Shown piece by piece: positions 795 through 57,048 of a DNA stretch of 64,000 nucleotides. Positions within the stretch are counted from its first letter, which is position 1; each line of letters starts with the position of its first letter. Made by a program: the position numbers and the translations under genes. The notes under the pieces were generated by a model. The model was not told the DNA's origin and made no database searches. It worked only from the letters and a program-made list of their open reading frames with translations. This DNA is from an uncultured delta proteobacterium (lineage in GTDB: Bacteria > Desulfobacterota > Binatia > Binatales > Binataceae), in contig CAWKCZ010000007.1 in NCBI GenBank assembly GCA_963848285.1, positions 361,597 to 425,596 of the forward strand, written 5' to 3'.

Positions 795-2083
795 TCAAGC
801 GGCGAGGTCGCATCGAGTTGCGTCGCCAGCGAGCCGAGCCGCGCGCGATGCTTCTCGACCACGACCGTGCCGCTCGCGAATCAACGACGCCGAGGCGCGC
901 TCGACCGCCGCGCGCAGATGATGCGCGCGAAGCGTCATCGCCTGCGCCATCATGCGGGAAAGTTCGCGGGTGCGAATGCGCACCTCGCGCGCGATCGCGC
1001 TCGGCGGCCGCAGCCGCGCGACATACTCGCGAATGATGCGGCGCGCATCGAGGACGCGCGCTTCCATCGCGGCGGCGAGCTCCTCCGAAATGTCATCGAC
1101 ATGCGCATGCGCCTCGCGCATCAGCGCGCGCGGATGCTTCACGCGCGCGGCGAGGTAGTCGACGTCCTCGGCAAGGTCGTCGAGCATCTTGCGCATCGAG
1201 GAGGCGAGCGTGCGCTCGAGGTTGGCAACCTGCATCGCGCAGCTCGACCGCGCGAGGGCACCACCACGTGCGCGGCGAAGGTCGGCGTCGGCGCGCGCTT
1301 GTCGGCGACGAAATCCGCGATGGTGAAATCGATCTCGTGGCCGACCGCCGAGACGATCGGAATCCGCGAGCGGAAGATCGCGCGCGCGACGACTTCTTCG
1401 TTGAACGCCCACAAATCCTCGAGCGAGCCGCCGCCGCGTCCGACGATGATGACCTCGGCGCGCGCGTGGCGATTGAGATCCTCGATCGCGTCGGCGATAT
1501 CCTCCGCCGCGCCTTCGCCCTGCACCCGCGCCGGCCGGATGATGACGTTGCAGATTCGGGAAGCGATCGAGCAACACGCGCAGGATATCGCGCAGGCCGG
1601 CGCCGCCGAGCGCGGTCACGATACCGACGGTGCGCGGCAGAAACGGCAGCGCGCGTTTGCGGCCCGACATCGAAGAGGCCCTCGCTCATTGAGGCGCTGC
1701 TTGAGCTGCTCGAATGCGATCTGGAGCGCGCCCGCGCCGCGCGGCTCCATCTCCTCGGCATAGAACTGGAGCGTGCCGCGGGTCTCGTAGATATTCACGC
1801 GCCCGCGCACCACGACCTTCATCCCGTCGGCGGGCTTGAAGCGCAGGCGGCGCTTGGCCGAGGAAAACATCACGACATTGATCGACGCGTCGGCATCTTT
1901 GAGGGTGAAGTAGAAATGATTCGAGTTGGCGAAGCGCGCGTTGGAAATCTCGCCGGTAACCCAGCAGTCGCCGAAGCGCGCATCGAGCGCGTCGCGCACC
2001 AGCCGCACCAGTTGGCTGACCGTCAGCGCCGACGAGGTTTGCGCGCGCGGCGGACCGAGCGCGAGATCGAGCTGCCCCGCCAT
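795..2083 (-). CDS. xseA: Exodeoxyribonuclease VII large subunit; at least 3 frameshifts
   Basis: The N-terminal OB-fold segment (1616..2083), the middle segment [50 protein letters not shown] (1139..1525) and the C-terminal coiled coil (795..1670) lie in different frames. Confidence 0.8.
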
Positions 2084-41308: not shown

Positions 41309-42347
<1,039 letters not shown>

Positions 42348-42348
42348 C

Positions 42349-42714
42349 CTAGTCGCCTTTCATGAGGCGATGCGAATCGCTGTTGAAATGCTGGGTGGAA
42401 AACTCGTACAGCTCGGCGTCCTCGAGCGCTTCCATCTGATGCACCAGGCCCGGCGGAATATCCATGCATTCGCCGGGATTGAGGACGAACTGCTCGATTT
42501 CCTCGGCGTCCGCCGACTCCTTGATGGTCACCCGCAAGCGTCCGGCGCGCAGGAAGAATGATTCGGTCTTGAGCTTATGAAAGTGCAGCGAGCATCGCTT
42601 GCCCTTGTTGATTTCGAGGATTTTCCCGCAATAGAGCTCGTTGTTGGCGAGCCACACCTCGCGGCCCCATCCTTTGGGTTCGATATGAACCGGCTGTCGT
42701 ACGCGATTCTTCAT
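42349..42714 (-). CDS. Cupin-domain protein (sugar isomerase/epimerase-like) adjacent to gmd; intact
   Basis: ...[49 protein letters not shown]... Confidence 0.45.
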
Positions 42715-42766: not shown

Positions 42767-43858
42767 CTATTTAGTCTGCGCCTCGATAGTCAGTGGAAGC
42801 TGAAAGCGCAGGGTCTGCGGCGGTTCGCATACGGTGTCGCTGCAGGCCTGGAAGCGCAGGGTACCTTCGATTTTGTATGACCCCGGCTCAATGCGCTTGC
42901 CCAGCGCCTCCATAAATTTTATCGGCGCGGGCGGGCTCCACTTGATGCCGAGCTTGCCGAGGGCGCTAATTTTTCCTTCATACACCGGCAGGGTTTCGCC
43001 CAGCGCCTTGAGGAGCACCGGCTTGGCTGCCGGCATCTCCAGCGATTGCTCGTCCACCAGCGGGCCCTCGAATTTCAGCTCAATAGACTGATAGTTATCA
43101 GGAAGCGGGGTGCCGTAGACATGCCATCCGGGCTGGAGGTTAACCTCCAGCGCGACGCCCAACTCCTGTCCGGGGAAGCATCGATCGGTCGAGAGGCCAA
43201 TGATCGCGGTGAGCACATCGGTTTTGATTTCGAGGGAATTTGGCGCCGCCGCCATCCCGCCCCGGCGCAACGTAAACTGCGTCACCGACGGACGATGCTC
43301 GTAGTTCTCGAGGAATACCTTATCCAGCACAGTGCCATCGGGCGCGAGGAGGAAATCGCCCGGCCACGGCATCCCATACATCATTTTGTGGTCTTCGGGG
43401 ACGTTGGTGTTGAGGATGCCGAATGCGCGGATTACCTTGCTGCCGACATCGGACAGCAGCGGATACTCGATGTGGTTGGCGTCACTGAAACGCTTGAGGA
43501 TTTCCCGCGAATCATAAGTGATCGACGCGACATTGATGCCCTGCGCTTTGAGATTCTTGAGCGAGTATTGCAGCTCGACGAGCTGGTTGCGGCAGTAGGG
43601 TCACCAATCGGCGCTGCGGCTGAAGATGAGCGCGAGCCCGTTTGACCCCATCAAATCCTTGAGCGCAAGCATCCGGCCATTCTGGTCGGGCAGCGCAAAG
43701 TCCGGAACCTTGGCGCCAATCGCGGGACCGGTTTGATAGCCGTGATTCTGCGCCGCGACGAATTCAAGCCAATCATCGGTGGTGATATCGGCGCCGCCCG
43801 CGCCCATGCGAGGAATCATATCGCGAAGTATCGAGGCTCTGGTTTTAGTTTCCATCAC
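42767..43858 (-). CDS. Candidate selenoprotein: Prx/Bcp-like redoxin domain fused to a DsbD-N(alpha)-like domain; in-frame TGA at 43601-43603 inside the redox motif W-U-P-Y-C
   Basis: ORFs 43601..43858 and 42767..43384 are in the same frame, separated only by TGA: ...GAKVPDFALPDQNGRMLALKDLMGSNGLALIFSRSADW-[TGA]-PYCRNQLVELQYSLKNLKAQGINVASITYDSREILKRFSDANHIEYPLLSDVGSKVIRAFGIL...; the C-terminal domain carries QACSDTVCEPP. Hairpin CAGCUCGUCGAGCUG lies 15 nt downstream of the UGA. Confidence 0.55.
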
Positions 43859-43897
43859 CGGTCTCCTTGAAATTCCGGATTTGTTTGAAGCTGCCGG

Positions 43898-44581
43898 TTA
43901 GCGCGTGACGATGGCCTGCGCGACCTTCACCATTTCCGCAGTCGGCTCCTTCAGCACCAATGGCTCCGGCACCGCAACCCCGCGCTGACAGGCCGGCCGC
44001 GCCTCCATGCGAGCCAGCCATGCTTGCAGATTGGGGAGCCCTTCAACGCTGACGCCGCTCCACGGATGGATTCGCACCCAGCACCAGTTGGCGATGTCGG
44101 CAATGCTGTACTCATCGCACAGGTACTGGCGACCTGTAAGTTGGCTCTCGAGCACTTCGAACAGGCGTCGGCATTCGTTGTGGTAGCGCTGGATCGCAGC
44201 GGGAATCTTTTCGGGAAAGTAGCGATAGAAGACGTTGGCCTGGCCCATCATCGGACCGATGCCGGCCATCTGGAACATCAGCCATTGGGTGACGCGCGAC
44301 TCGCCCTTGTCGTCCTGGGGCAGGAGCTTGCCGGTCTTCTTCGCGAGGTAGAGCAAAATCGCGCCGGTCTCGAAAACTGCGAAGTCACCATTAGCGCGAT
44401 CGACGATGGCCGGGATTCTGCCATTGGGGCGGAGCTTCAGAAACTCGGCCTGCTTCTGCTCGCCCTTGCTCAGATCGATTTTATGAACGTTGTAGGGCAG
44501 CCCGACTTCTTCCAGATAGACGGAAACCTTCCAGCCGTTGGGAGTTGAGGCGGTGTACAGGTCGATTGTGGGCGAGCTCAT
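43898..44581 (-). CDS. Nu-class glutathione S-transferase (YfcG/YghU-like GSH-dependent disulfide oxidoreductase); intact
   Basis: [61 protein letters not shown]...[15 protein letters not shown]... Confidence 0.75.
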
Positions 44582-44723
44582 CGCAAGACCTCCTCGAAGG
44601 CGGGTAGTTTAATCGACCCTAGCGATTCTGGAACGAGCGGTCAAGAATTCCCGCCGCTTGCCAAACGGCCGCGACGGATGACGTCAAAATCGGAAGCTGC
44701 TACTCTTTGAGCCTGGTCGAACC

Positions 44724-45344
44724 ATGGCGCGTCCCAAAGAATTTGATCATCGCGAAGTGCTTGACCGCGCGACCAATCTGTTCTGGACCCGTGGTTACGA
44801 TGCGACCTCGATCGAGGACGTGGTCGAAGCCACCGGCATCAACCGCGGCAGTATCTATGGCACTTTCGGCGACAAACAGGGGCTCTTTAACGCAGTACTC
44901 GAATACTACACTCAAATCGTCGCTAACTCGATGTTAGCGGAGTTGGCGGACCCGGATCCGCGCCGCGCCATCGAACGAATGTTCGCTTTTATTATCGATC
45001 GCACCAGCAACCCGAAACTGCCGCGCGGATGCCTCATCACCAACACTTCGCTGGGATGTCGAAGTCGCGGCGATGAAATTTCCCTCCACATCGAAAAATG
45101 CTTCGGCAAGGTCGAAGATGCCATCCATGCAGTGATGCGCCGGGCACAAGCCGCGGGCCTGGTAGCTTCGCCGCGCGAGGCGAAGGCACTCGGACGGTTT
45201 TTCTTCTGCATCGTGCAGGGCCTCAACGTCCTGAACAAGGCCGCGGTGGAACCGGAGGCGCTGAATGATATGGCGCGAGTCGCCATGAGCGTCTGGCAGA
45301 ACTCCCGCGCATTGCCACATCGAAGAGCTGTGGCCGCTCGCTAA
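44724..45344 (+). CDS. TetR/AcrR-family transcriptional regulator; intact; divergent from the GST/redoxin operon
   Basis: ...REVLDRATNLFWTRGYDATSIEDVVEATGINRGSIYGTFGDKQGLFNAVLEYY... Confidence 0.75.
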   Translation: MARPKEFDHREVLDRATNLFWTRGYDATSIEDVVEATGINRGSIYGTFGDKQGLFNAVLEYYTQIVANSMLAELADPDPRRAIERMFAFIIDRTSNPKLPRGCLITNTSLGCRSRGDEISLHIEKCFGKVEDAIHAVMRRAQAAGLVASPREAKALGRFFFCIVQGLNVLNKAAVEPEALNDMARVAMSVWQNSRALPHRRAVAAR

Positions 45345-45649
45345 GGCCTTTGTCGCTTCCATTTTCTGCGGAACCGGCTGCCGATTGAAGTTACTTCACA
45401 CTTACTTTGGTTAGTAAGAACCTCCAAGCTTCCGAATGGGGTGTTCGAATACTTCAATCGCACGAAGGTTTAAAAGCTTGTACTTGCGGGGGTCGACACT
45501 TGGCTAGCATCCCCGCCGACACTTACAAACGCACGACAGGGAAGTCGGGAAGTCGGCAACATGCGCGTACTGGTAGTCGCGGACGATAAGAATCGCTACC
45601 GAAAGAATCGCTACCGATGATCGTAGTAAGGCGATGAGGGCTGCGCCTG

Positions 45650-45903
45650 CTGCGGGCCGAGCTTTACCGGCGCAGGGATTCCCATCGAGGAGCGCTCGCG
45701 AATTTGGGATCGTCTCTATCGAGGCGACAAGAGCCGCTCCCAACGAGGGCTAGGACTGGGCCTCAGCCCGGTGAAAGCAATCGCCCAGGCACGTCGGGGA
45801 CGCATCGAAGTGATCAGCGCAATTGGACGAGGTTCCCGGTTCGCGCTCCATTTCCCGGCCTATAACACTCAACCAAGTTTGGAGCATTGTTGTGGCCTGG
45901 CGA
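45650..45903 (+). pseudogene. Remnant of a sensor histidine kinase: only the C-terminal HATPase_c tail remains
   Basis: ...GAGIPIEERSRIWDRLYRGDKSRSQRGLGLGLSPVKAIAQARRGRIEVISAIGRGSRFALHFPA... with no upstream HisKA/sensor part. Tandem duplications sit just upstream (45539-45557, 45588-45616). Confidence 0.5.
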
Positions 45904-46062
45904 TTGAATTCTGCGCCTCCTAACATGCCATATCGGCAGGAACGTCGTACAGAAATCAATTCGTATATCCCTGCCCGGCCTAAATTAAACTATTCAGTTG
46001 ATCCGCGCCGATGAGAGACATATAAGCGCGCTTAGTTTTGATCGGCACCTATGTCATGAAGA

Positions 46063-46857
46063 GTGGAGACCATTATGTCTAAGGATGAGACTTTGATAAG
46101 TCGCTGGACCGGGTTCGCCTGGACCGGGTTCGCAATGACATTAGCTATCGGCGCGTCAGTCGTATCGATGGCAGTGCCGGCAGGCGCGGCTACCCTGCGC
46201 AAGGCCACTTCGGCCTCGGCTGCCAATGCAGCGGCGGCGAGTGGCGATCCCGGAAGTGTCTTGTATGGCTACTTCGACACCAACGAACCTCCGAGCGAAA
46301 ATGGCACCGGGAATGGCGGCAGCGCGGTGCGCCTGATCAATACGACCGCGCAGGACATGTGCGCCCTCATTTACATTTTCGACAAGGACGAGGAACTCAA
46401 CGCATGTTGTGGTTGTCCTCTGACCGCCAACGAGCTGGTCACGTTGGGCAACGACACCAGGTTTCTCCCTCGCGAGGCCGGCGCTGACCTCGACAGCGGC
46501 GTGATCGCGATCGTCGGAGCGACTGCTTTGGCTCCATGCACCACCAATGGTTCTGCTTCGAACGGCTCGACGTTCAACCCGTCGTGCAATGCCGGATGCG
46601 ATCCGACCATCCCGTTCACGCCCGGCGTGCTGGTTCAGAGCACCCCCTCGGGGCAGGGACTGCAAGGGAATATCATCCACAGTTTTCGGATCGGTAATGT
46701 CGCCAGCCTGACCGAGGATTCACTGTTCGATGATTCGCCGGGCGACTCGACCAACATCGCGCAGGACCTCCAGGCGCAGTGTAAGAACATCGTTCAGCAT
46801 GGTTCGGGCTTCGGTGTCTGCAGTTGCCCGACGGGGTCCGACGAAATGATCGAGTAA
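46063..46857 (+). CDS. Secreted Cys-rich hypothetical protein (signal peptide; 10 Cys incl. CCGC); intact; lower GC
   Basis: ...TLAIGASVVSMAVPAGAATL...MCALIYIFDKDEELNACCGCPLTANEL...CNAGCDPTIP...CKNIVQHGSGFGVCSCP; a 15-bp tandem duplication at 46104-46133 encodes WTGFAWTGFA. Confidence 0.5.
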   Translation: METIMSKDETLISRWTGFAWTGFAMTLAIGASVVSMAVPAGAATLRKATSASAANAAAASGDPGSVLYGYFDTNEPPSENGTGNGGSAVRLINTTAQDMCALIYIFDKDEELNACCGCPLTANELVTLGNDTRFLPREAGADLDSGVIAIVGATALAPCTTNGSASNGSTFNPSCNAGCDPTIPFTPGVLVQSTPSGQGLQGNIIHSFRIGNVASLTEDSLFDDSPGDSTNIAQDLQAQCKNIVQHGSGFGVCSCPTGSDEMIE

Positions 46858-46902
46858 TGACAGAATCTGACCTGAGTAAAAGCTCAGCGATCGTATAGCT
46901 TC

Positions 46903-46950
46903 AGGCGCCGCGGACTTGTTCTTGGTTCGCGGCGCCTTTGCTTTTCTGAC
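46903..46950 (+). terminator. Intrinsic terminator GGCGCCGCGGACTTGTTCTTGGTTCGCGGCGCCTTTGCTTTTCT
   Basis: Long GC stem plus T-rich tail. Confidence 0.45.
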
Positions 46951-47049
46951 AGATACATTCAGGTACGCCGGTATCATTCCGCGAAACCGAGATCAATATC
47001 TCGCGCCTATTTATCGCATTCGAGGCTTAACGCAACTGAATGCTAATAT

Positions 47050-47538
47050 ATGCAGCATTCATTCGCGGAGGTTCATATGAGAAGGGGACTATTGCTTGGA
47101 TTTGTGACCGTCGGACTGCTGTGCACCTTGGGGGTGGCGAGAGCGGATTATTGCCTGACTTTTCCCACTGATACACCCGACGACAACCTGGTTTTTGTCG
47201 GTCGGGGATTCGTTGTGCCGGCGAAAAATGCCTGTAAATCATGGGTTGGATTCAGTAATTTTAACGCCGAGATCTCACCTACCAGCGGCACCGCCTGCCG
47301 GTCCGCAGATGGGACCCAAATGAGCATCATGCTGCAGACCGGCTTTGCTGCAGAGGGCACGTTCTTCGAGGAAGACCAGATGTCGGTGGATCTCTCGACC
47401 GGCGAAGTGACTGACTTCTTCACCAATTTCGATGACGGCGCGTCGGATTTTGGGGGACCCGTCGATGGTACTGCCGCAAAGTGTAAGAAGATCGCCGTAC
47501 CCAACCCGGTAGCTGCCGCCGCAAATGCCAACCACTGA
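47050..47538 (+). CDS. Secreted hypothetical protein (signal peptide MRRGLLLGFVTVGLLCTLGVARA); intact
   Basis: Full-length ORF with an N-terminal signal; no homology I can recognise. Confidence 0.45.
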   Translation: MQHSFAEVHMRRGLLLGFVTVGLLCTLGVARADYCLTFPTDTPDDNLVFVGRGFVVPAKNACKSWVGFSNFNAEISPTSGTACRSADGTQMSIMLQTGFAAEGTFFEEDQMSVDLSTGEVTDFFTNFDDGASDFGGPVDGTAAKCKKIAVPNPVAAAANANH

Positions 47539-47638
47539 GGTTCGTTCACAATTGCTGCTAAACCGCGTCTTTTCACAAGGACGCGGTTGGCAGCCTCTCA
47601 AAGTGTTCGATGGTCGCGCCTAAGGGTTAATTGTCCCC

Positions 47639-48226
47639 TCATCCCCTCGCGGCCACCGGAGCATCCAAATCGCGCAAGCGAATGTCGACCTCGAGCGACG
47701 CTCCTTCCTTGCCGATTAGCACCACGCGATGAAACGGTCCGCTATATTGCACCCGTCCGCCGTTAGGCAGCTTCCACGAGGCTTCCAGGCTCGCGACGCC
47801 CTCATGGATCGTGCCCGTGGATGACGGCGCGCCCAATGCGCTCTCGAGCTGCTGATACACCTCGCTGCCTTCTGAGGGTGGGAAGTGCGCGATAACCATC
47901 TGCATGCCGGATTGGTCGGTGAACTCGTACACCACGTCCTGGTAATCGAAGCTGCCGGCACTGACGTCCTCGACCTTAAAGGCCGGCGCGCCGTAGGGAC
48001 TGGTTTGATTGAAGCCGATCGGAAACAGATGCTCGACCTCGTCACGGGAGTCGCCGAATTTAACTCCCATAAAGGAATTCAGGCCTTTCGGCGGCGATTG
48101 GCCGCTGAGCGGATTCGACGGCACCAGGCTGCAGGCAACCGCCCCCGATGCGCCGAGCGACAAGATCAATGCGACGATTTTTTTGTAAAGGTTGTTTCTG
48201 ATCAAAAGCGTGTCTCGGATAAACAT
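47639..48226 (-). CDS. Hypothetical secreted protein / lipoprotein directly downstream of the NusG paralog
   Basis: MFIRDTLLIRNNLYKKIVALILSLGASGAVACSLVPSNPLSG... signal peptide; intact. Confidence 0.45.
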   Translation of the reverse strand: MFIRDTLLIRNNLYKKIVALILSLGASGAVACSLVPSNPLSGQSPPKGLNSFMGVKFGDSRDEVEHLFPIGFNQTSPYGAPAFKVEDVSAGSFDYQDVVYEFTDQSGMQMVIAHFPPSEGSEVYQQLESALGAPSSTGTIHEGVASLEASWKLPNGGRVQYSGPFHRVVLIGKEGASLEVDIRLRDLDAPVAARG

Positions 48227-48252
48227 CGCGGCGTACCGCAGGTCCGATTACC

Positions 48253-48768
48253 TCAAGAATATTTCGCCAACGCAGTCGCGGGCAAAACGATCCGGGGGCC
48301 TGCACTCTCGATGGTGTTGAGCAGAATTGCGACGCGTTCGGCACCGGAAAGATAGCGCTCGAAGATCGCTTCGAACCCGCGAAAAGGACCCTCCACCACG
48401 CGCACCGGTTGCCCGCTGTCGAAAGGAACCTCGGCTATCTCTACAACGTCATCGACACCGCGTGCCCGAATCTCCCCGACGATAGCTTCGGGCACCACAA
48501 TCGGATCGGAACCGGCGGAAACCAAACCGGTAACCCCGGCGAGGTACTTGACTTCGAAGTAGCTGGTTTGCAGATCGAGGCGCGCAAACACGTAGCACGG
48601 AAACAGCGGCGCGATAGACATCGCGAGCCGGCCCCAGCGCGGCATCCGCGCCTTCAGCATCGGCAGGAAAACTTCCGACAAGCGGCACGCGAGCTGATCG
48701 CGAACCCATCGCTCCTTGCCGGGTTTGGTGCGGACCAAATACCACGGATCCGAAGACTTCAATGACAT
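48253..48768 (-). CDS. Specialised NusG-paralog transcription antiterminator (NGN plus KOW; UpxY/LoaP/TaA-like); intact
   Basis: ...DPWYLVRTKPGKERWVRDQLACRLSEVFLPMLKARMPRWGR...LFPCYVFARLDL...; C-terminal KOW ...GQPVRVVEGPFRGFEAIFERYLSGAERVAILLNTIE. Confidence 0.65.
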   Translation of the reverse strand: MSLKSSDPWYLVRTKPGKERWVRDQLACRLSEVFLPMLKARMPRWGRLAMSIAPLFPCYVFARLDLQTSYFEVKYLAGVTGLVSAGSDPIVVPEAIVGEIRARGVDDVVEIAEVPFDSGQPVRVVEGPFRGFEAIFERYLSGAERVAILLNTIESAGPRIVLPATALAKYS

Positions 48769-48837
48769 CGGGATTCCTTCTGAGGCACAGAACTAGTTGA
48801 GATTCGGTGTTGAAGCAAAACCAATCGTACAAAACAA

Positions 48838-48866
48838 AGGGCGGCTGCGCAAAAGTCGCAGCCGCC
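48838..48866 (-). terminator. Intrinsic terminator GGGCGGCTGCGCAAAAGTCGCAGCCGCCC followed by a T-run on the minus strand
   Basis: Perfect 11-bp stem; TTTGTTTTG follows on the minus strand. Confidence 0.6.
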
Positions 48867-48891
48867 CGGGTTTGCCGATTATACCAGAAGT

Positions 48892-50842
48892 TTAGATCTC
48901 GTAACTGAGGGTCGCCTCCAGCTCGCTGATGCGCTGGTCGCGGCTGAACAGGAACGGATCCGTGTTGCGTCCGCTGCGGCCCAGGTACCAGATCCCATTC
49001 AGCCCCAACAGGATGTTACGCGAATAGCGGAACACGTTGGTGCTGCCCAGGTTGCCGGTGTTGTCGTCGATGTCCCATGCAAACGCGTTGGTCGACGTCA
49101 ACTGTCCATTGACCAGCCAGTTGGTGCTCGCAAGGAAGAAGAAGTTGCTGAAGCGACGCACCTTGCCGTATGCATTCGCGATGTTCGGAATCGCATGCCC
49201 CGGCAGATCGGGGTACCAGGTCTCGACGAACTGGCCGACCAGGAAGGTGTGCTGCTTGGAAATCCATGGAATGTAGGTCGGACGGTCGCCGGCCAGGATG
49301 AAGCGGCCGAACTCGGTCCACCGTGCTGCCGACTCACCGAGCCGCACGTTACGCGTCACGACCGGAGACGCACTCGGCGTAGGACCACCAGTGGGAGGGC
49401 CTGAAACGTCGATACCGACCTTCGGGGCGTACAGCGTGTCGTAGCGGAACACCATGTCGGTCAGGTCTTTGTCGTAGTAGGTTCCCGTCAAACCGAAGAA
49501 GTGGTTGCGACGGAAATTCTCGCTGGTGTACGGACGAATCGTTCCGAACGGCACCGGGCCTCCCGGAGGCGGTGCACCGAAATCGAACTGCCCGGGCAGC
49601 AGGAATACGCCCGGAAAGGCCTTAATGGTTCCGCCACCGCTTCGGTTGATCGGAGTCGGGCACGACGAGCATAGACCCGCTTTCGAATAGCGCGCCTCGT
49701 AAAGGTAGATGAAGCTTGCCTGCAACCCATTTCCGATCGGCAGCAAACTCGAATAACGGAAACCAAACTCGCTCTTGTCCAGCGTATTACGCGGGGTGTT
49801 CGAGTAGCCGGGTCCGCCTGTCAGACCGGCATTCGGATCAAACTGCGTATAGACATTGGTGGGCGCCGCAGCAGTTCCGAGGTTGGTGATACTCGATGGG
49901 AACTGTCCCAGATCCGCGAAGGTCTGGTGCCGATAGGGCTGCCCAAGGCGGTTGTATTGAATGAGCGGTCCGACCGGCGCTCGCACCATCCACGGGTTGC
50001 GCGCGTCGTTTAGCTGAACGACCGCAGTGTCACCCTGATAGTCGCCCGGAATGACGAAAGCCTCGGCCTCGTTGTTCGCAGTCTTCAGGAAGTCCGGCAG
50101 GATGTAGTTGAACTTCAACATCCTGACGTTCTTGCGCAGATTTTCTGCGGTCTCGAAATGGGTCCAGTGAAAGGTCAGGTCGTTTGGGTTGGTAATTTCA
50201 GTTCCCGACAACGCATCAGCTTCCGACCAGATGACCTGCTGCTTGCCGACACGGGCGGAAAAGTTGTCGCTGAAATTTAGCTGCCCGTAGTACTCGCGCA
50301 GGTCGTTGCGGAAGTACTCCTCCTGGATCTCCTGCTGCGTATACACCTTCCAGTCGCGTCGCGGTCTGGGCGACGCCCTCGCGCTTGATGGTCCCCAATG
50401 CGTTGTACCAGGGACGATAGAATGCAAAGAAATCCGCATCCTTAAGAATCAGTGTGTCGAGGCGGCCGAGGAACTTGTAGTTCTTGACCATATGGTAATC
50501 GGGTCGGACGTCGGCCAGTTGCCGCATCTGCACCAGGTCCCAATGGTTGAAATCGAAGCTCCCGCCGGTTTCCGTCGGTGCGCGTCCGGGATTGGTCTGA
50601 ATTGATCCCACCCCTGCTACCGGCGGTGTGAAGGTCGCAGGACTTCCGGTCCCGGACTTGGCACTGCCCTCGCCCCATCGACCGGACTCCCGGGTTTCGA
50701 AGAATCCGAACACCGAAAAGTCGCCTTGCGTAATCGTTGCGTTCGCCGCGGAGGTCCACAGCGTCGCGACCCCGGCGCATGCGGCGATCAACAGATTTCG
50801 CCAGCGCGCACCGCGACCAACACCCAACTTGTTCTTCACCAT
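48892..50842 (-). CDS. Large secreted / outer-membrane beta-barrel protein (about 640 aa, DUF1302-like), copy 1; one frameshift near 50330-50440
   Basis: Signal peptide MVKNKLGVGRGARWRNLLIAACAGVATLWTSAANA; Gly/Asn/aromatic-rich amphipathic strands ...RYSRNILLGLNGIWYLGRSG...ATLSYEI*. Confidence 0.55.
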
Positions 50843-51211
50843 ATGCTCCCCAAAGCTGACTGCTTCTTCCGGAGGTCAGCTATTTGCCGAATCGGCCCAG
50901 CCTGCGTTTCCACCCGAGTTAACCAAAATTAAGGGCCTCAGTAACATACCTAATTGTTAAGTGTCAATGCTGTCATAAGATAAACTATTGGAAAGACGCT
51001 GAAATCGTTGTACTCGACCGCACCTCAAGGACCCTGAGTCAGAACACCTTTGGCATCTCACAGGCAAGAACGATGCTAAAATGCTCTATATAACACCGCA
51101 AATGATGAAGTTCGCTGCCAAGCAATGCCTAAACCTGCTTGGCAGTGCATATCCAGCCGCATCGCGCCCATGGCGAACGAACCTAAATTAGATCCGGACT
51201 TAATATAAGCT

Positions 51212-52174
51212 TTGCAACTGAGTTGCTTCAGTATTGCTTATTTTATAGAAATGCTCATGTCGGGTGGGGAATTCGACATGGAATCTGCGCAGCAAAAATA
51301 TCGGCCAAGTTCCAGGGAATATAAAGTTAGGGATTTGGTCCTGCTGGAACTGAGGCGAAGTGGTTATCCGCTAAGCGAGATCGCCAGCTTGCTAGGTTTC
51401 TCACGACAGCGCGCCGCTCAAATCTACCGTCGCCTGGTCCACGAGGCCTCCGTTAACGAGGAGCCTTCAATCGCTCAAGGACGCGCTACCGGAGGCTCAT
51501 CGGAGCGTGCGTCCATCCATACGGTATCGACGGATGATTTTTCCGAACGCCTTGATCGTCTTAACCAGCATTTCGAATCGCGCGTCCAGCGCGTCTTGAA
51601 GCATCTTTACAAGCGTCAACTTCTCAACGTTCGGCGCAATTACATTTCTACTACGATGTTCTCGAGAGTATGGCCGTATATTGAACGCTATCAGGGAAAG
51701 CCGTTTACCTTCTCGCAGCTCGTGGCCGATCACGCGGAATTGATCGAGGAAAAGCATCTGCCGCAGTTTTTGTCTCGGCTTCGCCGCAACGGCGTGCTTG
51801 CGAATGCCGGATGCTTGCGCTTTCCCGGTCACAACCTTCCCGAGGTCGTCATGGTGGAGCGTCCTCGCGAAGAAACCTGCTCCCGATTTCTTGAGCCGCT
51901 TTTTGTGCGCTGGAGTCACGAGCTCCGCCGCTTGGAGACGAGATACAGAATCAGAGACGGCCAATCGCTAAGGCGAGAGCTATTGGCGGTCATCAGGGAC
52001 TTTGGGCTTTCCGAAGTTGATTTGGATGCGGTTCTGCGGGGCCGGCAAACGCTCGATATCAGGCCTCCGATCGAGATTGCGCAAAAGGATGATGCACGCA
52101 AAGTGCGCACCCCATCGGCTTTTTCTACCGCTCTTGAAGCCGACCAGTCTTTGCCCTTCCCCTCAACAACTTAA
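51212..52174 (+). CDS. Hypothetical regulator: N-terminal sigma-70 region-4-like HTH (LVLLELRRSGYPLSEIASLLGFSRQRAAQIYRRL) plus an unknown roughly 250-aa domain; intact; markedly AT-richer
   Basis: Intact 320-aa ORF (alternative start MESAQQ at 51278) in the spacer between the two OMP repeats; AT-rich upstream region 50900-51210. Confidence 0.45.
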   Translation: MQLSCFSIAYFIEMLMSGGEFDMESAQQKYRPSSREYKVRDLVLLELRRSGYPLSEIASLLGFSRQRAAQIYRRLVHEASVNEEPSIAQGRATGGSSERASIHTVSTDDFSERLDRLNQHFESRVQRVLKHLYKRQLLNVRRNYISTTMFSRVWPYIERYQGKPFTFSQLVADHAELIEEKHLPQFLSRLRRNGVLANAGCLRFPGHNLPEVVMVERPREETCSRFLEPLFVRWSHELRRLETRYRIRDGQSLRRELLAVIRDFGLSEVDLDAVLRGRQTLDIRPPIEIAQKDDARKVRTPSAFSTALEADQSLPFPSTT

Positions 52175-52199
52175 GCGGCGCTTTCGACATAAAAGAAAA

Positions 52200-52228
52200 G
52201 GGCGGCTGCGCAAAAGTCGCAGCCGCCC
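52200..52228 (-). terminator. Intrinsic terminator GGGCGGCTGCGCAAAAGTCGCAGCCGCCC (duplicate)
   Basis: Same hairpin; CTTTTCTTTT follows on the minus strand. Confidence 0.6.
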
Positions 52229-52252
52229 GGTTTTGCTGATTATACCGGAAGT

Positions 52253-54170
52253 TTAGATCTCGTAACTGAGGGTCGCCTCCAGCTCGCTGATGCGCTGGTC
52301 GCGGCTGAACAGGAACGGATCCGTGTTGCGTCCGCTGCGGCCCAGGTACCAGATCCCATTCAGCCCCAACAGGATGTTACGCGAATAGCGGAACACGTTG
52401 GTGCTGCCCAGGTTGCCGGTGTTGTCGTCGATGTCCCATGCAAACGCGTTGGTCGACGTCAACTGTCCATTGACCAGCCAGTTGGTGCTCGCAAGGAAGA
52501 AGAAGTTGCTGAAGCGACGCACCTTGCCGTATGCATTCGCGATGTTCGGAATCGCATGCCCCGGCAGATCGGGGTACCAGGTCTCGACGAACTGGCCGAC
52601 CAGGAAGGTGTGCTGCTTGGAAATCCATGGAATGTAGGTCGGACGGTCGCCGGCCAGGATGAAGCGGCCGAACTCGGTCCACCGTGCTGCCGACTCACCG
52701 AGCCGCACGTTACGCGTCACGACCGGAGACGCACTCGGCGTAGGACCGCCAGTGGGCGGACCTGAAACGTTGATACCGACCTTCGGGGCGTACAGCGTGT
52801 CGTAGCGGAACACCATGTCGGTCAGGTCTTTGTCGTAGTAGGTTCCCGTCAAACCGAAGAAGTGGTTGCGACGGAAATTCTCGCTGGTGTACGGACGAAT
52901 CGTTCCGAACGGCACCGGGCCTCCCGGAGGCGGTGCACCGAAATCGAACTGCCCGGGCAGCAGGAATACGCCCGGAAAGGCCTTAATGGTTCCGCCACCG
53001 CTTCGGTTGATCGGAGTCGGGCACGACGAGCATAGACCCGCTTTCGAATAGCGCGCCTCGTAAAGGTAGATGAAGCTTGCCTGCAACCCATTTCCGATCG
53101 GCAGCAAACTCGAATAACGGAAACCAAACTCACTCTTGTCCAGCGTGTTGCGCGGAGTGTTCGAATATCCCGCTCCACCGGTTAAACCACCACTGGGATC
53201 AAACTGCGTATAGACATTGGTGGGCGCCGCAGCAGTTCCGAGGTTGGTGATACTCGATGGGAACTGTCCCAGATCCGCGAAGGTCTGATGCCGATAGGGC
53301 TGCCCAAGGCGGTTGTATTGAATGAGCGGTCCGACCGGCGCTCGCACCATCCACGGGTTGCGAGCGTCGTTTAGCTGAACGACCGCAGTGTCACCCTGGT
53401 AATCGCCCGGAATGACGAAAGCCTCGGCCTCGTTGTTCGCGGTCTTCAGGAAGTCCGGCAGGATGTAGTTGAACTTCAACATCCTGACGTTCTTGCGCAG
53501 ATTTTCCGCGGTCTCGAAATGAGTCCAATGAAAGCTCAGATCGTTCGGGTTGGTAATTTCAGTTCCCGACAACGCATCAGCTTCCGACCAGATGACCTGC
53601 TGCTTGCCGACACGGGCGGAAAAGTTGTCGCTGAAATTTAGCTGCCCGTAGTACTCGCGCAGGTCGTTGCGGAAATACTCCTCCTGGATCTCCTGCTGCG
53701 TATACACCTTCCAGTCGCGTGCGGTCTGCGCGACGCCCTCGCGCTTGAGGGTCCCCAACGCGTTGTACCAGGGACGATAGAACGCAAAGAAATCCGCGTC
53801 CTTAAGAATCAGTGTGTCGAGGCGGCCGAGGAACTTGTAGTTCTTGACCATGTGGTAGTCGGGCCGGACGTCGGCCAGTTGCCGCATCTGCACCAGGTCC
53901 CAATGGTTGAAATCGAAGCTCCCGCCGGTTTCCGTCGGTGCGCGTCCGGGATTGGTCTGGATTGATCCCGACCCCCGGTACCGGCGGTGTGAAGGTCGCA
54001 GGACTTCCGGTCCCGGACTTGGCACTGCCCTCGCCCCATCGACCGGACTCCCGGGTTTCAAAGAATCCGAACACCGAAAAGTCGCCCTGTGTGATCGTTG
54101 CGTTCGCTGCGGAGGTCCACAGCGTCGCGACCCCGGCGCATGCGGCGATCAACAGATTTCGCCAGCGCAC
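52253..54170 (-). CDS. Large outer-membrane beta-barrel protein, copy 2; one frameshift near 53940-54060, at a different place from copy 1
   Basis: ORF 52253..54061 (602 aa, intact through the region broken in copy 1) plus the N-terminal signal-peptide segment 53802..54170. Confidence 0.55.
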
Positions 54171-54574
54171 ACCGCGACCAACATTCCAATTTGTTCTTCA
54201 CCATATGCTCCCCAAAGCTGACTGCTTCTTCCGGAGGTCAGCTATTTTGCCCCGACCCGAACAATACTGTTTGTCGCACCTATTCCATTACGGGCACGTT
54301 AACGCGGCCTAGGTAGCATCTTGCCGAAGAGGTTGTCAAGCAGGCGTCCCGAAACGAGACATCGCGCGATGCCCTTGTAAAATCGGGCAGTTAGGCGCAT
54401 GCGCGGCGCCAAATCAGGTCACCATGCGGGTTTCGAGCTTGAGAGAAGACGAATTCAAACACCACGCGCGGGCGGCTGGCAGCAAATTTTCTCGATCGTG
54501 CCGGACCACGGGTGCGCGCCCATGAGTCTGAGTAACTCTCAAATACGCGCGGGCTTATGGATGCCGAACAGGAT

Positions 54575-55165
54575 CTAGGCGCTCTCCGGAGTCAGGTCCT
54601 CGGCGAGCGACTTCGCGAGGTCTCCTCCGATGCGACCCTCGGCGCCGAGGTTGGGATGGTCGGCCTGAATGGCGATTTTCCCGTCCCTCGCAAGGGTCAG
54701 AAATGCATCAGGGTCCATTGCGACTTCGAAGCGCACGAACTGCACCGAACTGACGCGCTCCGGCGACATCTGCCGCTCGTCGAATTTGAGTGGAACTTTG
54801 CGATCGCCAAGCTTCAGCGACAGATGCTTCTCGACGCCGACCAGCCGCCGCAACGCCGCATCGCGCTCCTTGGCTTCGGCGAACTCAATCAGCAGCGTCG
54901 CCGAGATCTCGCCTCGCGCGGGGATCAACTCATTGTAGGTATCGATCTCATGCTGGATGGCGGCATCATCCTTGAGTTGCTCGGAGCGAATCATCTCTTC
55001 GACCTGGTACCAAAGCGTCGCGGTGTTTTCGAAGAGAAACGTCAGATGCGATCCAACCGCGAGCCGACGGCGTTCCTTCTCATGGATGAAGAGCGGGCGC
55101 AGCACCGGCCGCACCTTTTGCCATTGCTCGAGGCTGAGGATTTCGTTCTTGGTGATCTTCTTCAT
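54575..55165 (-). CDS. DUF3501-family protein; intact
   Basis: MKKITKNEILSLEQWQKVRPVLRPLFIHEKERRRLAVGSHLTFLFEN...; co-occurs with HdrD-like FeS proteins. Confidence 0.55.
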   Translation of the reverse strand: MKKITKNEILSLEQWQKVRPVLRPLFIHEKERRRLAVGSHLTFLFENTATLWYQVEEMIRSEQLKDDAAIQHEIDTYNELIPARGEISATLLIEFAEAKERDAALRRLVGVEKHLSLKLGDRKVPLKFDERQMSPERVSSVQFVRFEVAMDPDAFLTLARDGKIAIQADHPNLGAEGRIGGDLAKSLAEDLTPESA

Positions 55166-56507
55166 TTGGATTCCTCCGCAGCCTCAGGAGGCGGAACTTT
55201 GTCGGGAAAGCCGCCCTCGTCGTACGCAGCCGCAAGCACTTCGAGCGGATGCACCGGATGCACTCCCGTCGCCTGCTCGATCTGAATCGCCGAGAGCGGG
55301 CAATCGGTCGTCATCAAATTCGCGTCGGCGTCGCGCATGCCGTTGAATGCCTTCGCGCCCCATTTCATCGAGAGCTCGAAGTACTCCTTCTTCATCGCCC
55401 AGATGCCGTCGTGCGCGGTGCACGCATCGACGCTGACGACCTCGGCGCCGGGAATCGTGCGCATCATGTCGCGCGAGCGAAAGCCAATCTGCTGCGCCTT
55501 CAGATGACATGGGATGTGGTAGGCGACCTTGCCCGGCGTGGTGCGAAAATCGCGATTAAACTTGCCGTCGCGCTTGAGCTGGAACAGCAGCTCGTTCGGA
55601 TCGACCACGGCCGCGGCGAATTCCTTCACCTCATCGCCGGGAAGCAGCAGCGGATACTCGCGCCGCATCGTCAGCGAGCAGGTCGGATTGATCGCCGCGA
55701 TTTTGAATCCGCGGCGCACGTACGGCAGCATCGAATCGATGTTGGCGCGCGCCTGCTTCTGCGCGAAATCGACATCGCCGCCGTCGAGCGCCGGCATCCC
55801 GCAGCAGTTCTGCTTCGGGCATGCGATCTCGCATCCATTCTTTTCGAGCACCTTGACCGCGGCCTTGCCCGGCGCGGTGTCGTAATAATTGATGAAGCAG
55901 GTCGGGAATAGCACGACCTTCGCGGTCGGATTCGTGGGCGGCTTCGGCAGGTTGTCGCGCAGCCATTTGTCGAGCGTCTGATCGGCAAACTCGGGAAGCT
56001 TCTTGTCGCGATGAATCCCGAGCAGCTTCTCCATCAGCGCGCGATTGAGCGTGTTGCGGCATCCGAAGTTCGCGAGCCCCGGCAGCAGGCTGCCGAGCTT
56101 CCCGAGGCGATCGGGATTCGAGAGCATCTTGTCGCGGAACTCGACGCCCTTCTCTTTCGCCGTGACCGCCTTGTCGCGCTGCATCAGACGCGGGAAATCG
56201 AGCTGGAACTCGTGACCATCACCGGGAGTGTACGGACATCGCACCTCGCACATCTTGCACAGGTAGCAGAGGTCGACGACGTTGCGTTTCTCATCAGCAG
56301 TGAGCTTGACGAACGTCGCCGTCGTTGCGGTCGACCGCATCGAACAGCGCCGGGAACGAAGGGCACAAATTGAAGCACAGCCGGCATCCGTGGCAGATGT
56401 CGAACACGCGGGTGACTTCCTTGTCGAGGCCCTCGCGGCTCCAGTACTTCGGTTCAGTCGATGTTGTAGGTAAGCCCGTCGGTCGGCTGCGACGAAATGC
56501 GGCTCAT
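55162..56507 (-). CDS. Heterodisulfide-reductase-related (Fe-S)-binding protein (2x C-x2-C-x2-C-x3-CP plus CCG domains; GlpC/HdrD-like); N-terminal frameshifts
   Basis: MSRISSQPTDGLTYNID / ...VFDICHGCRLCFNLCPSFPALFDAVD / ...DLCYLCKMCEVRCPYTPGDGHEF...FPTCFINYY...CCGMP... Confidence 0.7.
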
Positions 56508-56628: not shown

Positions 56629-57048
56629 TTACCTCAAGGTGTCGGCAGCCTTGCCGAAGCGTCCCGCATGCGACTTTTCGGCCTTGGCAAGCGTCTCGAA
56701 CCAGTCCGCGATTTCCGCGAAGCCTTCCTCGCGCGCGGTCTTCGCCATGCCGGGATACATATCGGTGTACTCGTAGGTCTCGCCGTGCACGGCGGCCTTC
56801 AGGTTGAGCAGCGAATCGCCGATCGGCAGATCGGTCGCGGGATCGCCCACCTGCTTCAGGTAATCGAGATGGCCATGGGCATGGCCGGTTTCACCCTCCG
56901 CGGTGTCGCGGAACAGGCCCGCGATTTCGGGCTGACCTTCGACGTCGGCGACCTTTGCGAAGTACAGGTAGCGGCGGTTGGCCTGGCTCTCGCCGGCAAA
57001 CGCTTCCTTCAAATTTTGATGGGTTTTGGTTCCTTTTAGACTTGCCAT
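56629..57048 (-). CDS. Rubrerythrin-family diiron protein (ferritin-like; no rubredoxin domain); intact
   Basis: ...[56 protein letters not shown]... Confidence 0.75.

Follow-up and report, generated by a model that had tools for sequence, protein, structure and literature searches.

Is a lower-GC stretch of hypothetical envelope genes in an uncultured bacterium an acquired island, or does it belong to what the relatives of that bacterium carry at the same place? The question is raised by a 64,000-nucleotide segment of contig CAWKCZ010000007.1 (assembly GCA_963848285.1, positions 361,597 to 425,596 of the forward strand), hereafter the window, in which two near-identical copies of a porin gene enclose a gene for a helix-turn-helix (HTH) protein and lie next to a gene for a specialised NusG paralog. 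The window comes from a Candidatus Binataceae genome; homologues of its proteins are found almost exclusively in metagenome-assembled genomes of Candidatus Binataceae / Binatus, among them many “MFD” assemblies whose contigs reach Mb scale. A sequence-only reading had taken 45380-54300, from a TetR-family gene to a DUF3501 gene, as a single lower-GC island of horizontal origin, in which an antiterminator, exported proteins and duplicated porins had arrived together as a surface or export module. We instead assign a probability of about three in four to a composite reading: a conserved Binataceae envelope locus, a lineage-specific duplication of a porin cassette that encloses a rare HTH gene, and, beside them, a flexible slot.

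One genome per species was scanned with the NusG paralog, which gave 80 loci at 63–88% identity, and the window proteins were compared with these loci by tblastn. Genes for rubrerythrin, an HdrD-like protein, a DUF3501 protein, the porin, the NusG paralog and a lipoprotein follow one another in this order and in the same orientation in at least 45 of the 80 loci. All lie on the minus strand of the window: rubrerythrin at 56629-57048, the HdrD/GlpC-like gene at 55162-56340 (NCBIfam GlpC-like, E 1.4e-80), the DUF3501-like gene at 54575-55165, porin cassettes B and A at 52192-54247 and 48831-50885, the RfaH-like NusG paralog at 48253-48768, and the lipoprotein-like gene (195 aa) at 47639-48226. 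The last of these had no family match in profile searches, yet in about 40 related loci the gene immediately after the NusG paralog is its orthologue (32–60% identity); in 34 loci the lipoprotein gene is followed by a gene for a Wza-like protein of about 1,000 aa (Poly_export and SLBB domains) and then by one for an SLT lytic transglycosylase. Because same-order orthologues extend across at least 45 species, 47639-50842 and 52253-54400 can be regarded, on synteny, as vertically inherited backbone. Absence from the same site in relatives holds only for 42790-47638 and for the extra cassette with its HTH unit, and by the same comparison the doubled cassette with the HTH unit and the flexible slot are the genome-specific parts. 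Synteny with relatives had been set beforehand as the refuting test for the island, and gene order turns out to be conserved over its right-hand two thirds; since the porin–NusG–lipoprotein order is shared by at least 45 species, the single-island reading fails on its own terms.

One gene of the relatives is missing from this picture in the window. Most relatives carry, between DUF3501 and the porin and divergently oriented, a gene for a secreted NHL-repeat protein of 530–650 aa, some versions of which are very Cys-rich (e.g. L031 5579-7240, L043 5374-7329, L027 5641-7323, L013 5925-7523). It is absent from the window and from the closest relatives, L003, L007 and L011.

The repaired porin product is 649 aa long and has more than 360 homologues. 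Its AlphaFold model (56-sequence alignment; predicted local distance difference test score, pLDDT, 73.9; predicted template modelling score, pTM, 0.72) is all-beta after the signal helix, and we predict an outer-membrane beta-barrel with a signal peptide. One homologue, P0116 (53% identical), scores 28.0 bits for DUF1302 (PF06980) against a cut-off of 23.2, and precomputed PF06980 matches exist for six porin homologues; as judged from these sequence relationships, the porin is a distant branch of DUF1302. A PDB profile search with the porin alignment gave no match. The statement that nothing in the region matches a named system consequently needs amending for the porin, while it stands for the HTH protein, which has no named family. 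The predicted fold is shared with the DUF1302 proteins PP_0765 of Pseudomonas putida and Sama_1588 of Shewanella amazonensis, likewise large beta-barrel outer-membrane proteins with a signal peptide. For DUF1302 proteins, export of a cell-wall component and an esterase activity have been proposed, in both cases as hypotheses only (bioRxiv 10.1101/2020.07.04.188060, 10.1101/072470). In P. putida, a LuxR-type regulator adjacent to the DUF1302/DUF1329 pair is thought to control it (bioRxiv 10.1101/2020.07.04.188060). The HTH gene beside the window porin echoes this arrangement, although the window protein differs in that an N-terminal HTH is joined to an unrelated C-terminal part.

The two porin cassettes form a direct repeat (48831-50885 / 52192-54247) of 2,055 bp that is 97.2% identical and has a period of 3,361, with its edges 43 nt ahead of the start codon on one side and at the terminator's end on the other. 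Cassette A comprises the gene at 48892-50842, a terminator at 48839-48867 and the 43-nt end of a leader with a hairpin and ribosome-binding site; cassette B comprises the gene at 52253-54204 (or from a GTG start at 54170) and a bidirectional terminator at 52200-52228. The duplicated outer-membrane protein genes of the sequence-only reading are thus present as a repeat, but neither copy is an intact open reading frame (ORF) as assembled. The duplication is real: its outer flanks differ and are both syntenic with relatives, copy B continuing into an L003-type leader (alignable with L003 for 150 bp past the repeat) and copy A into the NusG gene; its inner junctions recur in contigs from other samples (porin and HTH divergent in L083; HTH and porin convergent in L084, L085 and L002); and the short-read contig L001 breaks off after 35 nt of the repeat, where a genuine branch point would stop it.

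The 56 mismatches between the copies are clustered, leaving a 501-bp identical tract and concentrating 16 mismatches in a 64-bp patch; neither feature was reached in any of 20,000 random placements of the mismatches. A second genome, MFD04944.bin.1.36, carries a syntenic cassette (L003) and another (L002) 810 kb apart, which are 98.9% identical to each other over 2,045 bp, have the same edges as the window cassettes, and are each about 76% identical to them. Mosaic differences and an identity higher within than between genomes together suggest that gene conversion keeps the copies alike. The history we propose would then be a lineage-specific doubling of the porin cassette, with the two copies held alike by conversion and the 1.3-kb HTH unit lying between them. 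Duplicated outer-membrane protein genes in concerted evolution by gene conversion are known from the bab/sab/hop pairs of Helicobacter pylori and from Neisseria opa. The Binataceae copies resemble these in being closer within a genome (97–99%) than between species (∼76%), in the mosaic pattern of their differences, and in their placement at two loci or in tandem. They differ from them in showing no sign of phase variation such as repeat tracts, in having cassette edges that coincide with the expression signals of the gene, and in the regulator gene that accompanies one copy. Elsewhere in the family, L048 (5998-9922) and L068 (5978-9902) each have two porin genes in direct tandem upstream of the NusG paralog, 82.6% identical; with such pairs in two other species, duplication of the porin is recurrent in the family.

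Compared with each other, the copies carry additional bases, one in A at 50360 and two in B, at 53970 and 54184. The gmd gene, a single ORF in L003, is likewise broken in two here by an additional G at 41834 (its Pfam pieces join at profile position 156), as is xseA (exonuclease VII large subunit; 795-2083, minus strand) by another frameshift, and other long-read genomes show breaks at different places in their porin and rubrerythrin orthologues; assembly error is therefore the most likely cause of the porin frameshifts. We count four to five indels of assembly-error type in the 64 kb, spread over gmd, xseA and the porin copies. One alternative, which we consider unlikely, is that both porin copies are true pseudogenes, belonging either to a decaying locus or to a reservoir from which an intact gene can be rebuilt by recombination. 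Its attraction is that the copies carry single-nucleotide indels at different, non-homopolymer places (50360, 53970), so that one crossover between these would yield an intact gene. The coding differences between the copies, 38 synonymous codon changes against 10 in amino-acid-changing codons, speak for purifying selection on both and suggest, being mostly synonymous, that both were functional until very recently; that the housekeeping genes gmd and xseA are broken in the same manner, and that other long-read genomes have breaks elsewhere in their orthologues, also argues against pseudogenes. Frameshifts in this long-read assembly should accordingly not be taken as pseudogenes without read-level checks.

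Between the cassettes lies the 1.3-kb HTH unit (50886-52191, plus strand), whose mechanically called ORF occupies 51212-52174. As the sequence-only reading had recognised, this ORF on the strand opposite to the porins encodes an HTH; it is sigma-70 region-4/LuxR-like and N-terminal, and a PDB fold search gives local matches to HTHs of these types only. An invariant Met-23 preceded by a GGGGA ribosome-binding site, together with a conserved AT-rich block at 51204-51248, suggests that the real start is the ATG at 51278. A word-based search found three homologues, and a full HMMER search 20 with E <= 1e-10 among 1.84 billion representatives; by these searches, the protein belongs to a very small, rare and unnamed family. 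A DUF1302-like porin gene adjoins the HTH homologue in 10 of 11 loci, the eleventh contig being too short to tell, and the two genes may be convergent (window, L002, L084, L085), divergent (window copy A, L083) or in tandem in either order (L087-L091). Genes that stay neighbours while their orientation varies are commonly a regulator and its target, and we infer from this that the HTH protein most likely serves as the dedicated regulator of the porin beside it. In the window it would act on the copy beside it, with copy A promoter-less and facing the HTH gene across a 370-bp AT-rich spacer. This spacer contains a perfect 10-nt inverted repeat (CTGCCAAGCA...TGCTTGGCAG) at 51115-51145, and the AT-rich block at 51204-51248 contains a TTGCTT direct repeat conserved in L084 and L085; both sites are candidate operator or promoter elements. 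Two other origins of the unit were tried and rejected. As an insertion sequence it would lack terminal inverted repeats (its ends, GCCGAATCGG... and ...GCTTTCGACATA, are not inverted repeats of each other), a target-site duplication, and any transposase family or fold. A plasmid or phage origin of the HTH protein found no tblastn match in 72,556 plasmids and 50,697 phages.

A contig from another sample, L083 (3,341 bp; contig_151872 in ERZ25039463), consists of exactly one cassette and one HTH unit, with both of its ends at cassette edges. Its HTH unit is 99% identical to that of the window, whereas its porin is 77% identical to the window porin but 99.4% identical to that of L002, and the change-over lies no more than 3 bp from the edge of the repeat, which points to a segment exchanged between species at the cassette border. 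On this evidence, one might regard the porin cassette and HTH unit (3.36 kb) as a discrete mobile or amplifiable module, which would be excised as a circle or amplified in tandem via the direct porin repeats, would enter genomes by homologous recombination with resident porins, and would be exchanged between species, with the HTH protein perhaps serving exchange or switching rather than ordinary regulation. Besides the composition and ends of L083, this idea draws on the fact that its porin matches at 99.4% that of a species with a backbone sharing only about 76% identity with the window while its HTH unit matches the window at 99%, and on the recurrence of the same cassette edges in the second genome, at the locus 810 kb away, again with an HTH homologue. 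We nevertheless find such a module quite improbable. A recombinase, a transposase, a replication gene, terminal inverted repeats and a target-site duplication were all looked for and not found; plasmid and phage collections gave 0 matches; the ends of L083 could stem from a repeat-graph assembler cutting at repeat borders; and in distant members the HTH gene stands beside single porins in other orientations, as an ordinary regulator would.

A related proposal, which we consider improbable, is that the porin cassette and the HTH unit form a copy-and-exchange module of a kind not described before: the promoter-less porin gene, with exact edges at the leader hairpin and the terminator, would be copied or converted between loci, modules would pass between species, and the HTH protein would direct this or switch expression between the promoter-bearing copy and the copy facing the HTH gene. 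If true, Binataceae could in this way alter or exchange a major channel at their surface, for instance when phages exert pressure on them.

It is highly improbable that the duplication is an artefact in which a long-read metagenome assembler stitched two strain variants of one porin in series. The 2.8% divergence between the copies is a typical strain distance and the assembly has indel errors elsewhere; but a unique 1.3-kb gene separates the copies, their distinct outer flanks are each syntenic with relatives, both inner junctions occur in independent contigs, L001 stops where a genuine branch point would stop it, 35 nt within the repeat, and a related genome has a second cassette copy too.

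For the conserved locus with its doubled cassette, the expression signals suggest how the genes are read. In about 40 of 46 related loci the motif CTTGACAAGG lies 140 to 155 nt ahead of the porin start, and a TAGCTA/TACCTA box and a conserved leader come after it. This conserved promoter is retained by copy B only, in alignment with the leaders of L003 and L007; the native promoter and leader occupy 54248-54400 (minus strand), with TTGACA at 54339-54334, an 18-nt spacer and TACCTA at 54315-54310. Copy A shares just the last 43 nt of the leader, has the AT-rich HTH unit upstream, and lacks the conserved TTGACA promoter. The fold of the porin leader is no better than that of shuffled sequences (z -0.72). 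Both window copies end in the same strong terminator, and one of its sequence type stands after the porin in 50 of 51 loci. A promoter-like TTGCyT-N17-TAryTT stands upstream of the NusG paralog across the close clade, also in loci without an upstream porin; in the window it takes the form TTGCTT-N17-TAGTTC in the intergenic stretch 48769-48830 (minus strand). The porin terminator and this separate promoter-like motif suggest that the porin is monocistronic and that the NusG paralog starts its own transcript. A feedback loop through read-through from porin to NusG gene was considered and set aside, the promoter-like motif after the terminator being conserved even where no porin lies upstream. 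In the arrangement we propose, a sigma-70-type promoter and a leader of about 100 nt would drive a monocistronic gene for a DUF1302-related beta-barrel channel, which would close with a strong conserved intrinsic terminator; the RfaH-like NusG paralog and the lipoprotein would follow from their own promoter. In most of the family these two genes head a Wza-type exporter / lytic-transglycosylase operon, and in the clade of the window they precede cupin and GDP-mannose dehydratase genes.

The NusG-family gene lies, as the sequence-only reading had it, directly upstream of the small-protein gene (27 nt apart), and its product matches Pfam NusG over residues 9-100 (E 4e-16). It has an NGN domain and a C-terminal KOW region, and its best PDB match is E. 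coli RfaH (E 2e-14), in a full-length alignment over residues 8-154. Its best NCBIfam match is TIGR01955 (RfaH), at 99.1 bits against a cut-off of 144.5, and the UpxY model NF033644 gives 64.9 against a cut-off of 100. UpxY is the first gene of each Bacteroides capsule operon (PMC11685472), and the NusG paralog is similarly the first gene of a polysaccharide-export operon in 34 relatives, where the order is NusG paralog, lipoprotein, Wza-like protein and SLT transglycosylase. The paralog thus resembles RfaH, UpxY and LoaP in its NGN domain and KOW-length C-terminus, and differs from them in falling below all three curated cut-offs and in that 4.85 kb of cargo breaks up the operon in the window. 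An inhibitor of the UpxZ type was not recognised, and second place is taken by the lipoprotein gene. By this analogy and by its position, the paralog most likely serves the polysaccharide operon that it heads, where, like UpxY or RfaH, it would make transcription of that particular operon processive. The surface and export theme of the sequence-only reading is borne out here, given a large beta-barrel porin and a NusG paralog that heads a Wza-type polysaccharide-export operon in relatives.

Beyond the lipoprotein gene, the cupin and GDP-mannose 4,6-dehydratase (gmd) genes (41309-42714, minus strand; Pfam Cupin_2 and GDP_Man_Dehyd; gmd at 41309-42347, cupin at 42349-42714) are again backbone, with 93–95% amino acid identity to L003. 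By comparison of gene order, the true variable segment is 42790-47638, between the lipoprotein gene and the cupin–gmd pair. In L011 the slot is without an insert, the cupin and gmd orthologues following within 98 bp of the lipoprotein gene; L003, L005, L006 and L007 have 3–6 kb of unrelated cargo each in the same slot, read by eye from translations as CoA-ligase-like genes, an aldo-keto reductase with a LysR regulator, and an efflux pump with a hydrolase. The slot takes different cargo in each related genome. In the window it holds genes for a redoxin, a glutathione S-transferase-like protein (GST), a TetR-family regulator, a kinase remnant and two secreted proteins, none of which has a counterpart in the 80 related loci by tblastn. 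The TetR gene (44724-45344, plus strand; Pfam TetR_N, E 2.9e-15, and TetR_C_13), which the sequence-only reading had placed, along with the GST gene, in the flanking backbone, lacks a counterpart there as well and so belongs to the cargo. Integration hotspots between conserved core genes are a known phenomenon of flexible genomes, and this slot resembles them in having the same two core genes as borders, unrelated cargo in each relative and no cargo in one. It differs in that an integrase, a tRNA and attachment repeats were not found and in that its composition is barely atypical.

The first cargo gene (42767-43858, minus strand) encodes an AhpC/TSA-DsbD_N redoxin with matches to Pfam AhpC-TSA (E 5.8e-16) and DsbD_N (E 5e-8) downstream of an in-frame TGA. 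This TGA, at 43601-43603, occupies an active-site position (...SRSADW-TGA-PYC...), so that the redoxin is a candidate selenoprotein, a nonsense mutation of a Cys codon being equally possible. The fold downstream of the TGA is weak and not significant (z 0.83) as a selenocysteine insertion sequence (SECIS) hairpin. The GST gene (43898-44581, minus strand) matches an NCBIfam GSH-dependent disulfide-bond oxidoreductase model at E 1e-52, under its cut-off. The stranded histidine-kinase C-terminus (45630-45923, plus strand) is pseudogene debris, with nothing of the kinase upstream: it matches HATPase_c positions 45-109 of 111 (E 9.8e-12) and has in-frame stop codons immediately upstream. The insertion or deletion boundary that had been suspected near this remnant corresponds to a real variable zone. 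Just upstream, at 45561-45620, a short ORF starts MRVLVVADD..., like the N-terminus of a response regulator, and is followed by a 14–15-nt direct duplication (AAGAATCGCTACCG twice); these may be further debris of a two-component operon.

Both of the secreted hypothetical ORFs reported in this part (46063-46857, with 10 Cys, and 47050-47538; both on the plus strand) are present and have N-terminal signal-like segments. The first, of 264 aa, has 41 homologues (31–78% identity), including several paralogues on one contig, and on these matches it is a member of a lineage-restricted multi-copy family; it has no Pfam domain. A homologue examined for context lay in an unrelated neighbourhood and gave no functional lead. 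The gene is followed by a strong terminator at 46903-46937. The second protein has 5 Cys and no match in Pfam, NCBIfam, PHROGs or PADLOC; its gene has the lowest GC content at third codon positions (GC3) in the slot (0.62) and recurs with the same neighbours, at 99.9% identity, in the independent short-read contig L001.

Several points weigh against the composite reading. Neither the query porin nor P0003 has a Pfam DUF1302 match at E <= 1. The proteobacterial DUF1302 cluster is defined by DUF1329, BNR and RND partners (bioRxiv 10.1101/072470), and Pfam and NCBIfam found genes for neither DUF1329 (LolA-like), BNR nor RND partners in the window region. An ops-like recruitment element was not identified at the locus, and the conserved porin leader boxes GCCGCGTTCGTAG / GGCCGCGTTAACGT are unlike ops and are separated from the NusG gene by the terminator and a promoter. 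The porin and NusG-paralog promoters are predictions from conserved motifs, the target of the NusG paralog is read from its operon, and the regulatory role of the HTH protein from its neighbours. The porin frameshift sites at 50360 and 53970 are, as noted, outside homopolymers. Plain gene conversion within one genome does not explain L083, which hints at module exchange between species. In another part of MFD04944.bin.1.36, locus L009 (CAWKOR010000001.1, 890410-910922) has a second NusG paralog, 80% identical, beside a gmd-like fragment, and a little downstream of it a true DUF1329 gene (Pfam E 1.2e-39) that is encoded on the other strand; the usual partner family of DUF1302 is thus present in Binataceae, at another place.

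The drop claimed for the region exists (GC 0.570 against 0.6235 +/- 0.021 for 1-kb windows outside 42-55 kb; 0.614 for the whole window), with minima of 0.54 at 45345-46062 and 0.474 at 50843-51211, but it is mild (z <=2) and begins near 42 kb, to the left of the proposed border. A k-mer check had been suggested as well: tetranucleotide z-scores are <=0.75 over the slot, so that the variable left part does not stand out, and at most 2 over the porin genes. The only compositional outliers in the region are the HTH unit (GC 0.52, GC3 0.58) and the 162-aa gene. The most atypical tetranucleotides of the window (z 3.4–3.9) lie at 1-2500, the xseA region, together with the highest GC (0.65–0.67). 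Pfam and NCBIfam scans found no integrase or transposase domains among the proteins of the region, the 64 kb contains no tRNA, flanking repeats are absent apart from the porin cassettes, and no Rfam family occurs in 41-56 kb. A defence-system reading was dropped after a PADLOC search gave nothing meaningful, and in a PHROGs search the sole recognition was that of the NusG paralog as an antiterminator. That 45380-54300 is one acquired island is thus scarcely credible: its GC about 5 points below the rest of the window, a kinase remnant that indicates rearrangement, and several genes without named families speak for it, while the porin, NusG paralog and lipoprotein occupy the same place beside DUF3501–HdrD in at least 45 species, orthologous porin genes of relatives have an equally low GC (0.56–0.59), the variable part has other borders that take in the supposed TetR flank, and mobility genes, tRNA and flanking repeats were not found.

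What had looked like an island would therefore be mostly conserved core of an uncultured family (Binataceae, phylum Binatota), in a stretch of lower GC and largely hypothetical envelope genes. The comparison defines a family-wide locus running from porin to RfaH-like NusG paralog, lipoprotein and Wza-type exporter, which provides a definite candidate case, beyond the well-studied phyla, of polysaccharide export under operon-specific antitermination, and it identifies a very small, unnamed HTH family tied to DUF1302-like porins. The porin cassette itself, near-identical within genomes and divergent between species, offers a tidy case of concerted evolution, with hints of interspecies exchange.

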